Position numbers and translations under genes: made by a program. A stretch of DNA of 38,611 nucleotides, taken from IMG/VR virus record IMGVR_UViG_3300023184_005353. One strand, 5' to 3'. Positions 1,439 to 37,044 of the stretch are shown in pieces (position 1 is the stretch's first letter; each line of letters starts with the position of its first letter). The notes under the pieces were generated by a model. It was not told where the DNA came from and made no database searches. It saw only the letters and a list, made by a program, of their open reading frames with translations. Source of the stretch: a virus (lineage: Duplodnaviria; Heunggongvirae; Uroviricota; Caudoviricetes).

Positions 1439-2002
1439 ATGAGCAAAAGTTATAGTAAAATTAGGCATATGAGAGAATCTAACATTATTTTAGAAAATAG
1501 AATAATAAATGAAAGCGCTACTAAAAATTTATATATAAAAGAGGAGGGTGAAGGAGTTGAGCCGTGGATGCAAGGAAGTAATCCATCAGGTAGTCCAAAA
1601 AAACCTTTGGACTTAAGTGCCTTAAAAGATTCTTCACAAGATAATCAACCGGCAAGTATTGAACTTAAAAGATTTACATTTCCATTTCCTGATGTTTTTC
1701 ATAGACCAGGAGGGATTGATGGGATTTATGATAAAACTAATAAGAAGGTTTCAGTAGAATGGGGTACAGAAAAATACGACTTAATTGACAAAACCAAACT
1801 AGAAGAAAATCCCCATAATTTAACAGATTTTACTTGGGTAAAAGATTTGAATGAAAAATTTAATACCTTCAATCACAATTATTTAACTCCATCTTATGAT
1901 GTGAATAATAATAATTTAGTATGGGTTGAAATTTCTATTGATAGAAAAAGTAATGCAAAAGTTGTTAATACTTACCCAACACGTAAAACATTACCTCAAT
2001 AG
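1439..2002 (+). CDS. Hypothetical phage protein with SYSKIRH..ESN..LE leader
   Basis: ATG at 1439 follows TATTTAT (1419-1425), so it is preferred over the upstream TTG. Leader ends IINE. Confidence 0.75.
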   Translation: MSKSYSKIRHMRESNIILENRIINESATKNLYIKEEGEGVEPWMQGSNPSGSPKKPLDLSALKDSSQDNQPASIELKRFTFPFPDVFHRPGGIDGIYDKTNKKVSVEWGTEKYDLIDKTKLEENPHNLTDFTWVKDLNEKFNTFNHNYLTPSYDVNNNNLVWVEISIDRKSNAKVVNTYPTRKTLPQ

Positions 2003-2004
2003 TT

Positions 2005-2412
2005 TTATTCAATAGAATAAAGTTCTATTAAAAATTTATTATTATTATCTGTATCTAAACTTCTATAACAACATAAAAATTTAGTTTTTAATGTTTTTTT
2101 ACGTTTTATTGTATAATTTTTTTCAGTAAAATTATAATAATAATTATTTAAACTATCATAGTATATTTTTCTACTAACCACTTTAAACTTAACATTATTT
2201 TTTTTAAAGTAAGATGTCGTATCTATTACCATATATAATGGTAATATTTGGTAATCATCTAAATTTATATTTATTTTTTTAATGAAATAATTTAAAATTG
2301 TGTCATTAATTATTTCTTCTTTAGTTTCTTGTGATAAAAGTCTAATATCTTTTTCTTGTGAATAAGAATAAGTTGATATTAAAACAAACAAAATAATTAT
2401 TAATTTTTTCAT
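2005..2412 (-). CDS. Hypothetical secreted protein
   Basis: Signal-peptide-like N-terminus MKKLIIILFVLISTYSYSQ. Confidence 0.65.
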   Translation of the reverse strand: MKKLIIILFVLISTYSYSQEKDIRLLSQETKEEIINDTILNYFIKKININLDDYQILPLYMVIDTTSYFKKNNVKFKVVSRKIYYDSLNNYYYNFTEKNYTIKRKKTLKTKFLCCYRSLDTDNNNKFLIELYSIE

Positions 2413-2508
2413 ATAAAAGGTTTATTACTAATAATAATATAAAAATATTGAAAAATCAAAAAAAAACTTTTATTTGCTTTTAATTTCTTATGGTATTTAT
2501 TATAGTAT

Positions 2509-2766
2509 ATGAATAAAAGAGATGTGATAACTATGATTAGTAAACTTTTAAATAAGTTTGTAAAACCAAAATTTCCTGAAATCTTTGAAATTAAAGTTAA
2601 ATATATAGATATTCTTGAATTTTTTCAAATTGATGTGTTGGTTGACGGGACAGACCAAGAACAAGAAAATGAGATTACGGATATTATTGAAAACATATTA
2701 AAGTATACTGGAGAAAATATAAGATTCCAAATATCATTTCATATTGAATATTGGGGTAATAACTAA
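2509..2766 (+). CDS. Hypothetical protein
   Basis: ORF preceded by TATTTAT at 2494-2500. Confidence 0.65.
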   Translation: MNKRDVITMISKLLNKFVKPKFPEIFEIKVKYIDILEFFQIDVLVDGTDQEQENEITDIIENILKYTGENIRFQISFHIEYWGNN

Positions 2767-3080
2767 TCAGTATCATTATAAATTGCAACTCTAACATTTT
2801 TTGTAAAACCAAAATACCCTAAATAACTTTTTAAGTCTTTCGCAATTTTTAGTTGTTCGTCTCTTAGAATTCTCTTCGGTGTAATTAGGGTAACATTAAC
2901 CCAATAAGATGCTCCAGGGTGCATTTCAACCCGCGCTAAAGTAATTGTTTGATTTTCAGGTTCTAACCTAAATTCACCATAATCAACGTAATGTCTTTCT
3001 AATATTTTTTTTGCTTCATCTGAATTTAAAAACCTCTCAAACATAGTCATAGATTGTGCAATTTCCTTCTCTGTCATCAT
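2763..3080 (-). CDS. Hypothetical protein
   Basis: ORF with minus-strand TATTTAT at 3085-3091; convergent 4-nt overlap with the previous gene. Confidence 0.7.
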   Translation of the reverse strand: MMTEKEIAQSMTMFERFLNSDEAKKILERHYVDYGEFRLEPENQTITLARVEMHPGASYWVNVTLITPKRILRDEQLKIAKDLKSYLGYFGFTKNVRVAIYNDTD

Positions 3081-3109
3081 AATTATAAATATTCGGTATA
3101 TTTATAATT

Positions 3110-3871
3110 ATGGGAAAAAAATCTATAATAATAACTGAGCAACAAATGGGCGGGTTATTGAAAAAAATTATTAGTTTAATAACAGGAGATTCAAATTCAA
3201 ATTTTGATTTAAAAAGTATGATGTCTTCATTGTTTGGAAAAGATAAAACTTCATATGCAAAATCAAGTGATATTGATACCAATTTTAATAGTATTGTTAA
3301 TAAAATTATAGATAATTTTGAGGGTGGGTATTATGACCCGGTAACAATGAAAGCATCCGCAATGGGCGAATCTGGTGAAACTATGTATGGTATGGATGCC
3401 AAGGCTTCTGATATGTTAAAAACAAGTGCGGGTAAACAATTTTGGGATTTGATTCATGCCGACAAATCAAAGAATCCACGTTGTTGGACATTAGAGTATG
3501 ACCCAGCTAAAAGTAGTAAATGTCCAAACCCTACATTGGCAAACCAATTGAAGGGTTTAATTGCTCAAATAATGAAACCTGAATATGATAATTTATCTAA
3601 AAGGTATTTAAGTCCTGAGGCATTAACTATTGTTAATAATGACCCGGGATTATTATTCCATTTTACATATGCAACATGGAATGGGTCAGGATTTTTTCAA
3701 AAATTTGCTAAAATTATTAATAACCAAGTTAGTTCAGGTGTTAAAGACCCTAAAGAATTATTAAAAATTGCAATAGATAGTAGGAAAAATTTTACAGCAT
3801 ATAATTCATTCGCCAATAATTTAACACAAAGAGGTGGAAGACAGATGGAAAAAGTTTTAGGTGTTGCATAA
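3110..3871 (+). CDS. GH108-like lysozyme-fold muramidase with IITEQQ leader
   Basis: Contains IIDNFEGGYYDP...SGETMYGMD, resembling the GH108 EGGY..D.GGET.YG motif. Confidence 0.55.
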   Translation: MGKKSIIITEQQMGGLLKKIISLITGDSNSNFDLKSMMSSLFGKDKTSYAKSSDIDTNFNSIVNKIIDNFEGGYYDPVTMKASAMGESGETMYGMDAKASDMLKTSAGKQFWDLIHADKSKNPRCWTLEYDPAKSSKCPNPTLANQLKGLIAQIMKPEYDNLSKRYLSPEALTIVNNDPGLLFHFTYATWNGSGFFQKFAKIINNQVSSGVKDPKELLKIAIDSRKNFTAYNSFANNLTQRGGRQMEKVLGVA

Positions 3872-35280: not shown

Positions 35281-35285
35281 CAAAT

Positions 35286-35357
35286 GGTTCTGTAATTCAA
35301 CGGATAGAATGACAGATTTCTAATCTGTACATAGTGGTTCGATTCCACTCAGAACTA
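35286..35357 (+). tRNA. tRNA-Arg(UCU)
   Basis: GGTTCTG/CAGAACT acceptor, ATTC/GAAT D stem, ACAGA-TTTCTAA-TCTGT anticodon arm and AGTGG-TTCGATT-CCACT T arm; CCA not encoded. Confidence 0.95.
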
Positions 35358-35373
35358 CATAAATTACACAAGT

Positions 35374-35727
35374 ATGGCACACCCAAATCTACACGCAAAA
35401 TCTTCAGCCAAGAAATTCGGAGGAAAACCTGAGGATTATATTCATTTACATAATTGGTTAGATGAAACAAAAGGATGGTTCGGAGATTCACTTCATAGAT
35501 TAAATAGACATCATTCAGAAGGAATTTTTGAAATGGAACAAAGATTCGGCACAGAATTTAAAAATTCAGATGGGAAAATTGTATATACAAGATATGTGGG
35601 AGAACAACACGTCCAAGAAGATTGTAATGGATATATTCCGAGCGCAAAGGAATGGATTAATAATATTTCCAAAAATGAAAGGCCAATATGGATGATGAAG
35701 ACAATTAAATTAGAATTCAATGATTAA
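35374..35727 (+). CDS. His-rich DUF6915-like protein
   Basis: MAHP..HAKSSAKKFGG..EDY..LHNWLD..K......HR..RHHSEGIF...EQHVQED. Confidence 0.75.
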   Translation: MAHPNLHAKSSAKKFGGKPEDYIHLHNWLDETKGWFGDSLHRLNRHHSEGIFEMEQRFGTEFKNSDGKIVYTRYVGEQHVQEDCNGYIPSAKEWINNISKNERPIWMMKTIKLEFND

Positions 35728-35742
35728 ACATATTTATATATT

Positions 35743-36444
35743 ATGGTAAATTTATTAACACCCGATGAGAAGAAATCATTAAGACTTGCATCAAGATATC
35801 TTAATTCTATGGGGATGAAAGTGGGAACACTTGAAACTGAAGGATATGATAGGTATGAAGATTTTGCGGATGCGAAAATTAAAGCAACTGAGTGGACGCA
35901 TTTTACAAACAATTATTCAATTGATGTTCCAGAACAATTATATCCAATAATTGATAAGGTTTTTTCATACTCGCAAAAAAAATATATGACTCTTGACATT
36001 GATACGAATGATAATGAAATCAATTATGCTAGTGTTTGGTTGGATATTAACACAAAAACACAAGACATATCTGTTAGATATTCTTATCATTACTATGATG
36101 TTGGTGGGGAAACATCATCATCTTTTGAGGATGACGGAGAAATTTTCTCAGACTTGACTACAAATAATATACCTGATGATAATATTATGGAATTAAGATA
36201 TAATGGTTCAGGAGACTCCGGATATCTTGAAAACACTTTTGAAAATGGTGAAAGCGTTCCTGCAAGTATTGAAGATTGGTGTTATGATGCTCTTAATGGT
36301 GAATATGGTGGGTGGGAAAATAATGAGGGGTCTCAAGGAAGGTTTTATTTTAATATGGAAAATAAAACAATAACATTAGAGCACCAGTATAATACGGAAG
36401 AATCATCTTCAGTAACGTTATATGAAGAAAACTTTTCTAAATAA
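35743..36444 (+). CDS. Acidic protein with C-terminal DUF6878-like domain
   Basis: LRYNGSGDSG...GGWENNEGSQG motif. Confidence 0.7.
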   Translation: MVNLLTPDEKKSLRLASRYLNSMGMKVGTLETEGYDRYEDFADAKIKATEWTHFTNNYSIDVPEQLYPIIDKVFSYSQKKYMTLDIDTNDNEINYASVWLDINTKTQDISVRYSYHYYDVGGETSSSFEDDGEIFSDLTTNNIPDDNIMELRYNGSGDSGYLENTFENGESVPASIEDWCYDALNGEYGGWENNEGSQGRFYFNMENKTITLEHQYNTEESSSVTLYEENFSK

Positions 36445-36459
36445 CAGATATTTATAATT

Positions 36460-37044
36460 ATGGAAAAATTAAGTTTAACCAAAGAACAATTATTCAAAGC
36501 AATGAAAATGAATGAGCAAACTTCAGCTGAAACAGCCTCAAAACCAAGTAAAGGTGTTAATTTATATAAATTAAGTGATAAGACCATCACAATCCTTACA
36601 AGTAGACTTAAAAATGAATATGAAGCTCATTATTATTATAGAGCCGCCGCAAACTGGTGTAATGACACAAATTACAAAAAAGCTACAGCGTTTTTTGAAA
36701 ATGAAGCAACTGATGAATTAGAACACGCTAAGACACTTCAGGAATATATGACAGATTTTAACATTATTCCAACAATACCTGCAGCAAACACAAAACATAG
36801 TTTTTCAAATCTAATTGATATCATTCACGGAGCATATAAAATGGAATTAACATTAATGAATGAGTATAATAAAAATTCTCAGGAGTTATTTTCTAGTGAT
36901 ATTACAACATTTGATGTTTTAACTAAATTCAGAAAAATCCAAAAAGGTGCCGTAGTTGAATATAATGATTTAATTAACGCTTCTGACTTAATTAACAAAT
37001 CAGACAAATTCCAAGTATTATATTTTGAACAAACTTATTTCTAA
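36460..37044 (+). CDS. ftnA: Ferritin with short N-terminal extension
   Basis: NEYEAHYYY...FFENEATDELEH...ELT...IQKGAVVEY ferroxidase-centre pattern. Confidence 0.85.
   Translation: MEKLSLTKEQLFKAMKMNEQTSAETASKPSKGVNLYKLSDKTITILTSRLKNEYEAHYYYRAAANWCNDTNYKKATAFFENEATDELEHAKTLQEYMTDFNIIPTIPAANTKHSFSNLIDIIHGAYKMELTLMNEYNKNSQELFSSDITTFDVLTKFRKIQKGAVVEYNDLINASDLINKSDKFQVLYFEQTYF

Follow-up and report, generated by a model that had tools for sequence, protein, structure and literature searches.

Why should so many otherwise unrelated proteins of a single phage begin in the same few ways? The question is raised by a 38,611-nucleotide (nt) stretch of caudoviricete DNA, IMGVR_UViG_3300023184_005353 (the whole of which we call the window; 29% G+C, about 65 genes), for which an earlier reading of the letters alone (the original prediction) had proposed that about 18 proteins share portable N-terminal leaders that address them to the phage head. 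All of the starts listed in that prediction exist, and we find that 17 proteins encoded between positions 1439 and 32045 open with one of five recurrent leader classes, the tags ranging in size from 9 to 25 residues. We consider it moderately probable, from sequence comparisons, that these leaders are capsid-targeting propeptides of a T4-related jumbo phage, forming an expanded, multi-class version of the system known from T4. No near relative of the window was found among deposited phages, and the metagenomic contigs on which its proteins recur reach 282 kb in length; the source is a large uncultured T4-related phage, probably a jumbo phage.

Class A leaders follow the pattern M-(K/S/A)-K-I-(I/V)-R-L-(T/S)-E-S-(E/D)-L-x-x-L-V-x-x-x-I-x-E and are carried by the genes at 3903-4346 (minus strand), 7375, 11633, and 12267, with a variant at 5713. 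Class B (S-K-I-R-H..N-I-I-L-E-N-R) has a sole window member, at 1439, and class C ((I/V)-I-I-T-E-(E/Q/S)) comprises 3110, 4423, 5205, and 23397-24017 (minus strand). Class D (E-x-x-R-(I/F)-(K/R)-x-x-(M/V)-G) is found at 20220, which has a GTG start, 27196, and 29238, and class E ((I/L)-(S/T)-E-x-E-(K/R)-x-x-I-(L/R)-x-x-(H/Y)) at 6874, 10567, 25553, and, in weaker form, 30996. The leader genes, together with a ferritin gene that the original prediction had counted among them, are as follows, with positions of the upstream heptamer TATTTAT given relative to the start codon.

1439..2002, plus strand: class B leader protein, 187 residues; leader approximately residues 1-26, with I-L-E at residues 17-19 and I-N-E at 23-25; TATTTAT 20 nt upstream.
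3110..3871, plus strand: class C leader protein, 253 residues, starting M-G-K-K-S-I-I-I-T-E-Q-Q; this long start is supported by a TATTTAT at -11; no Pfam or PHROG family matched.
3903..4346, minus strand: class A leader protein, 147 residues; leader codons 4278-4346; acidic, with a CxxC zinc-finger-like insert.
4423..5208, plus strand: class C leader protein, 261 residues, starting M-K-I-I-I-T-E-E-Q.
5205..5573, plus strand: class C leader protein, 122 residues, starting M-I-Y-I-I-T-E-S; the start overlaps the stop of the preceding gene, and gene callers are split between 109 and 122 residues.
5713..5985, plus strand: class A variant, 90 residues, with I-I-I-K-E-S-E-L-V-K-L-I-E; weak match to a PHROG family named 'virion structural protein' (E 0.0018).
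6874..7371, plus strand: class E leader protein, 165 residues.
7375..8709, plus strand: class A leader protein, 444 residues; leader codons 7375-7443.
10567..10869, plus strand: class E leader protein, 100 residues, starting M-F-I-S-E-E-E-K-K-E-I-L.
11633..12205, plus strand: class A leader protein with CxxC motifs, 190 residues; leader codons 11633-11701.
12267..13529, plus strand: class A leader protein, 420 residues; leader codons 12267-12335.
20220..21323, plus strand: class D leader PPK2 kinase, 367 residues, GTG start.
23397..24017, minus strand: class C leader protein, 206 residues, starting M-N-Y-I-I-T-E-Q-Q; TATTTAT at -13.
25553..26524, plus strand: class E leader protein, 323 residues, with I-S-N-S-E-K-S-N-I-L-D-K-H.
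27196..29187, plus strand: class D leader protein, 663 residues, with L-D-R-I-K-L-L-M-G at residues 14-22.
29238..30338, plus strand: class D leader protein, 366 residues, with I-N-R-F-R-E-I-V-G, then I-N-E/A; match to PHROG 8482, category 'head and packaging' (E 3.9e-8).
30996..32045, plus strand: weak class E-like leader protein, 349 residues, of uncertain membership; no TATTTAT upstream.
36460..37044, plus strand: ferritin-like protein with a 44-residue N-terminal extension; TATTTAT at -11.

The proteins behind these leaders appear to have nothing else in common. Once the first 30 residues are set aside, no BLASTP match at E<0.01 connects any of the 17, in agreement with the prediction of unrelated downstream domains, and descent from one family of whole-protein paralogues was rejected, similarity among the cargo being absent. 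Most of the cargo matched no family in Pfam or PHROG scans, and the functions first assigned to it fared unevenly. Solid matches were obtained for PPK2 in the 20220 protein (2e-69), for PG_binding_1 in the 7375 protein (2.6e-10), and for Ferritin in the 36460 protein (1.3e-16, residues 45-172). The N-terminus of the last (KMNE-Q) is at best a possible, degenerate leader, and the leader-A model described below gives this protein no score. The acetyltransferase (GNAT) label on the 4423 protein corresponds to a weak match that lies under the Pfam cut-off (Acetyltransf_1, E 0.0013), and the L,D-transpeptidase label on the 7375 protein is a lead from a protein language model and structure prediction, which suggest a possible YkuD-like domain. 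Neither a GH108 muramidase nor a nuclease was found on any leader protein; Endonuclease_NS, encoded at 6217-6858, carries a signal peptide and no leader.

The leaders are strictly a feature of protein starts. In a six-frame scan of the window, every match to the leader patterns lay within 7 residues of the first Met of an open reading frame (ORF; GTG for 20220), and there were no internal matches. Shuffled sequence yielded only 0-0.04 matches, and chance or composition as the source of the leaders was rejected by these shuffles and by those of the N-termini given below; the counts are nonetheless partly circular, and outweighed by the result on position, because the patterns were derived from the same data. 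The patterns of classes B, C, and E were likewise confined to ORF starts in about 330 kb made up of the window and related loci. Outside the window, the class E leader of the 25553 protein recurs at the start of an unrelated 276-residue protein of the same phage (10001-10831 on the adjoining contig L026, whose link to the window is given below), which provides an independent paralogue. The same contig carries three further class A genes at 8566-9969. About 170-1470 nt past the window end, it also encodes (3137-4435, minus strand) a 432-residue protein with a faint Peptidase_M23 match, a class D-like start (I-N-E-E-I-S-R-T-K-K-L-M-N-I-K-E), and a TATTTAT.

A profile of leader A, built from an alignment of twelve class A leaders taken from different cargo (A2), shows how far this one class extends. 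Searched against 1.84 billion metagenomic representatives, it retrieved 8140 protein clusters at E<=0.001, and in 138 of the 147 top hits that could be placed in register the leader begins at residue 1, so that a profile scan of the kind proposed in the original prediction came out in its favour. Conservation stops at position 22-23, after which an acidic or polar linker rich in E, D, S, T, P, and G follows. Pfam families are almost absent from the cargo of the top hits, and no Pfam family spans the leader in them. Class A copies number 4-12 on each of five related viral contigs. In six metagenomic proteins (P0082, P0083, P0085, P0092, P0110, and P0118), we also observed two or three class A leaders, the internal copies retaining Met and basic residues, as if adjoining leader-cargo genes had fused into a polyprotein.

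Tag and cargo can be exchanged or kept together. Homologues of the 3903-4346 protein mostly carry class A, and a subset carries class B, so that the same cargo is found behind two tags; the 12267 leader recurs in a relative on cargo of another length (312 residues; L004, L005). The class D leader, on the other hand, is kept in all of approximately 95 distinct N-termini of PPK2 orthologues, and the leader of the 6874 protein is kept in orthologues on L004, L005, and L007. With a position matrix made from the PPK2 leaders alone, the 27196 protein ranks first of 52,763 scored peptides. In the acidic family of the 3903-4346 protein (alignment A1), we noted a nearly invariant C-terminus, P-I-K-x-x-D-L-P-L-D-K-F-L-K-S-K-Y, which is far better conserved than the remaining cargo.

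The codons of the leaders indicate what has been conserved. Third positions are twice as variable as first and second positions (1.07 vs 0.5 bits), and conserved residues are encoded by up to four synonymous codons; because of these two features, we conclude that selection acts on the peptide rather than on the DNA. At the DNA level, leader pairs within the window share 59-75% identity, and the codons of the 11-14 residues that a pair has in common differ by 3-6 synonymous changes. In AlphaFold2 (AF2) models of two proteins (3903 and 20220), the leader is predicted as a helix followed by a disordered linker. Residues 1-8 of the 3903-4346 protein are modelled as extended, residues 9-26 as a helix, and the following segment as disordered, with a block mean pLDDT (the per-residue model confidence) of 80-89 over residues 1-20; the 20220 model runs from the leader through a flexible linker, a four-helix N-domain, and an acidic linker to the PPK2 kinase. 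The four-helix domain (residues 31-101) is highly conserved and confidently modelled, and it lies outside Pfam coverage.

Among 50,697 deposited phages, tblastn searches with the leaders and the leader proteins gave no true leader match, the lone weak match, in phage C48C1, being internal and C-terminal; neither a cultured relative nor a virion proteome turned up in the collections covered. IMG/VR scans with single proteins returned no matches, and the relatives in that database surfaced by family alignment only. We found no description of these tags in the literature, in which the T4 concept is described.

If the leaders are removed in the head, a cleavage motif should be expected within them. 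The T4 prohead protease gp21 cleaves after L/I-x-E (PMC9026906), and in T4 internal proteins I-III (IPI-III) and Alt, the capsid-targeting sequence (CTS) attaches to the prohead core before it is removed (PMC9026906, PMC7411985, PMC3012670). Four residues (M1, L7, E9, and E22) and no others are identical in all twelve class A leaders of the A2 alignment, whose cargo differs, and position 20 holds either I or L throughout, which gives two (I/L)-x-E motifs, L7-x-E9 and (I/L)20-x-E22. Leaders of classes B to E contain one or two such motifs within their first 25 residues. The first 30 residues of the 17 leader proteins together hold 28 (I/L)-x-E motifs against 11.7 +/- 2.9 in composition-preserving shuffles, a 2.4-fold enrichment that was reached in none of 5000 shuffles (0/5000) and that upholds the predicted excess over shuffled N-termini. 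In T4 itself, Alt, gp67, gp22, gp21, and gp24 have short starting peptides that end in the cleavage motif. The capsid protein of the relatives contains an I-N-E/A that aligns with the region of T4 gp23 containing the known cut site, which we take to be Glu65/Ala66.

The original prediction had also called for a gp21-like protease, and one is encoded by the same phage. We reached its head module by walking overlapping contigs through exact-protein matches: L023 is 99.96% identical to window positions 29773-38611, L026 continues L023, and L028 overlaps L026 at 100% identity. L028 encodes, in T4 gene order, a large terminase, Portal_T4, Peptidase_S77 (235 residues), a 494-residue acidic protein, and Gp23; the terminase end of the module lies about 15.6 kb beyond the end of the window, and its far end at about 25 kb. 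The Peptidase_S77 gene (PF03420; L028 15115-15822) starts about 20.7 kb past the window end; its product matches T4 gp21 (PDB 5JBL) at E 1e-12 and retains the catalytic His and Ser (ELNHP and SSRG motifs), both of which are Ala in the 5JBL crystal form. Peptidase_S77 was also found in three of five related IMG/VR fragments. The relatives show the order terminase, portal, two small proteins, protease, a 72-residue protein, a 490-residue acidic protein, and a gp23-like capsid protein, corresponding to T4 genes 20-67-68-21-22-23. The 494-residue protein is a scaffold candidate by its position and composition, and it has no sequence likeness to gp22. Inside the head module, we also noticed a ribosomal protein S21 gene (PF01165; 61 residues; L028 14380-14565, minus strand), which is oriented against its neighbours and separates the portal-side core gene from the gene in the gp68 position.

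The leader genes share an upstream signal with this module. The terminase, portal, p234, protease, and scaffold-candidate genes are each preceded by TATTTAT, and so are the head genes of a relative. Within the window, the heptamer stands upstream of 13 of the 17 leader genes compared with 13 of 50 others (Fisher p 4e-4), and the leader genes that do not have it mostly lie directly behind a gene that does. It occurs 10-30 nt 5' of the start codon in many window genes, and is also present at an endolysin gene (19346-20167, minus strand; PHROG 181, 1e-62) and a Phage_holin_10 gene (38230-38400, minus strand), neither of which has a leader. From this distribution, TATTTAT may be a late promoter. 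Several window genes instead show Bacteroidota-style lipoprotein signals and TAnnTTTG upstream motifs, and the genes noted to have the latter, host-type motif are without a leader.

How closely, then, do these leaders resemble known targeting systems? The CTS of the T4 internal proteins, removed by the prohead protease gp21, was reportedly described by Mullaney and Black in 1996. As in IPI, IPII, IPIII, and Alt, the leaders described here are short N-terminal tags on unrelated proteins, ending in L/I-x-E (PMC9026906, PMC7411985, PMC3012670), and here too the phage encodes a protease of the gp21 family and has its head genes in T4 order. Class C in particular (M-K-I-I-I-T-E) resembles the starts of T4 Alt (M-E-L-I-T-E) and gp67 (M-E-G-L-I-E), over 6-7 residues only. 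The differences are nevertheless considerable: the leaders fall into five classes rather than one or two; class A, at 22-23 residues, is helical and contains two invariant motifs; dozens of genes per genome are tagged, compared with four in T4; and the cargo, known here from sequence, includes a PPK2 kinase and a peptidoglycan-binding protein. These comparisons suggest that the leaders would be analogues or very distant relatives of the T4 CTS rather than copies of it.

Other systems share some of these features. The internal-protein (ip) loci of T-even phages hold swappable, diverse ip genes that share only the CTS (PMC3012670), and the leader genes are likewise found in clusters of small variable genes; they differ in their thousands of cargo clusters, several tag classes, and exchange of class on the same cargo. 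The large phages phiKZ, 201phi2-1, and SPN3US also have many head-internal proteins; their head and ejection proteins are cut after Glu by a diverged gp21 homologue (gp175/gp245), and the propeptides have been proposed to target proteins into the prohead (PMC9026906, PMC7411985, PMC10052503). Those propeptides are, however, long (>100 residues in SPN3US gp75, gp53, gp54, and gp47) with no shared portable tag, and the phiKZ motif is S/A-x-E, whereas the tags described here are short and shared, and their phage is more closely related to T4.

Outside phages, the cargo-loading peptides of encapsulins are portable and address unrelated enzymes, including ferritin-like proteins, into a shell of the HK97 fold. 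They are usually C-terminal and uncleaved, and the bacterial compartments that they serve lack portal, terminase, and tail genes; the tags in our data are instead N-terminal, and the shell gene is of the gp23 type and stands beside portal, terminase, and protease genes.

On the reading that we favour, in which the leaders are capsid-targeting propeptides, each would form a module of an extended start and an amphipathic helix joined by a flexible linker to its cargo. The leader would dock a late-made protein onto the prohead core during head assembly, the gp21-family Peptidase_S77 would then cleave at one or both (I/L)-x-E motifs, directly behind the Glu, and the cargo, freed within the head, would leave with the DNA at infection. 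The sequence-level tests of the original prediction came out in its favour; core binding, head loading, cleavage, virion presence, and injection of the tagged proteins are what we infer from them.

Several observations weigh against this reading. N-termini without leaders are also mildly enriched in (I/L)-x-E (29 vs 19.5, p 0.012), and the motif alone is unspecific and would over-call, because it is short, I, L, E, and K abound in the proteome, and the terminase opens with a similar string. Class A exceeds the T4 CTS, which measures 10-20 residues (PMC7411985), in length, and similarity to the CTS of the T4 internal proteins is limited to the motif. Dozens of tagged proteins per genome, a polyphosphate kinase included, go far beyond the proven head cargo of T4-type phages. 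Moreover, two apparent links between the leaders and the head proteins themselves did not withstand scrutiny. A likeness of class D to the C-terminal tail of the scaffold candidates (R-I-K-D-L-M), as if the leader copied it, can be seen by eye and is statistically unsupported: a hidden Markov model (HMM) of 75 PPK2 leaders misses the tail, the position matrix places it only 16th of 52,763 peptides, and it differs in a more distant relative. Similarly, the protease and capsid protein have N-termini that look like leader A by eye, and a post-hoc pattern caught the leaders and two proteases only, but the leader-A model places the capsid protein 6th of 76 (score 4.9) and gives the protease about 0.8, which is not significant.

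Other explanations for the shared starts must be weighed against the same evidence. The leaders might be uncleaved interaction helices that either drive oligomerisation or bring late proteins to a shared partner other than the core, which could be a host target, a site on a membrane, or an assembly factory of the phage. This we regard as unlikely, even though the confidently predicted amphipathic helix on its flexible tether would suit such a role, as would the internal second copies of the leader in some proteins and the fact that leader cleavage is so far a prediction; it leaves unexplained why the invariant residues are exactly those of two (I/L)-x-E motifs, why conservation ends right after the second Glu, and why the leaders are tied to T4-type head genes and their upstream motif. 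A different kind of departure, which we hold to be quite improbable, keeps the head as destination and makes the five classes a multi-address code that would set the site, time, or copy number of cargo in the prohead, the two motifs allowing stepwise release. If it were true, a T4-type jumbo phage would pack and inject more than 50 proteins, polyphosphate kinase among them, and for thousands of uncultured phages the proteins that are injected could be read directly from sequence.

N-terminal tags are also known to address Clp unfoldases, and the same phage encodes a CLP_protease gene and a 686-residue protein with a double AAA+ domain, so the leaders could be recognition tags for the phage's own Clp-type machinery, to which an HSP20 would also belong, serving unfolding, handover, or degradation. 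We rate this very improbable: the ClpP gene has the host-type upstream motif and the leader genes that of the head genes, the leaders show no link to known Clp degrons, and it would be wasteful to place a degron on dozens of conserved late proteins, some of them enzymes. Finally, most leader genes have their own TATTTAT near the start codon, and promoter and first codons could therefore move jointly as a DNA cassette spread by recombination, with the shared peptide a functionless by-product. The codon analysis largely refutes this explanation, to which we give hardly any credence, since third positions are twice as variable and as many as four synonymous codons serve a conserved residue; the synonymous changes between window leader pairs at 59-75% DNA identity and the preservation of the peptide across 8140 clusters also stand against it.

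Several other features of the locus were recorded. The ClpP-like gene lies at window positions 32869-33543 (minus strand), behind its host-type upstream motif, and the double-AAA+ protein, which is ClpB/ClpA-like, is encoded past the window at L026 10861-12921 (minus strand), followed by an HSP20 gene at 13089-13475 (plus strand). Bacteroidota-type lipoprotein or signal peptides are present on the phage genes at 2005-2412 (minus strand), 6217-6858 (minus strand), 8778-9386 (plus strand), and 15054-17084 (minus strand), the products bearing them comprising Endonuclease_NS, a zinc-peptidase-like protein, an OmpA-like protein, and Fib_succ_major. Because none of these genes has a leader, signal peptides and leaders are mutually exclusive in the window. 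ARAGORN identified a tRNA-Arg(TCT) at 35286-35358 and an odd tRNA-like gene at 10893-10969 whose anticodon could not be assigned.

Should the tags prove to be head-loading signals, as we favour, sequence alone would be enough to list the proteins delivered with the phage DNA, which often act as first-strike weapons against the defences of the host. A very large group of uncultured phages would come within reach, with 8140 tagged clusters for one leader class, and the T4 strategy, known for four proteins, would be seen scaled to dozens of cargo per genome with interchangeable tags. Another possible use of these short natural tags is the loading of foreign proteins into large capsids.

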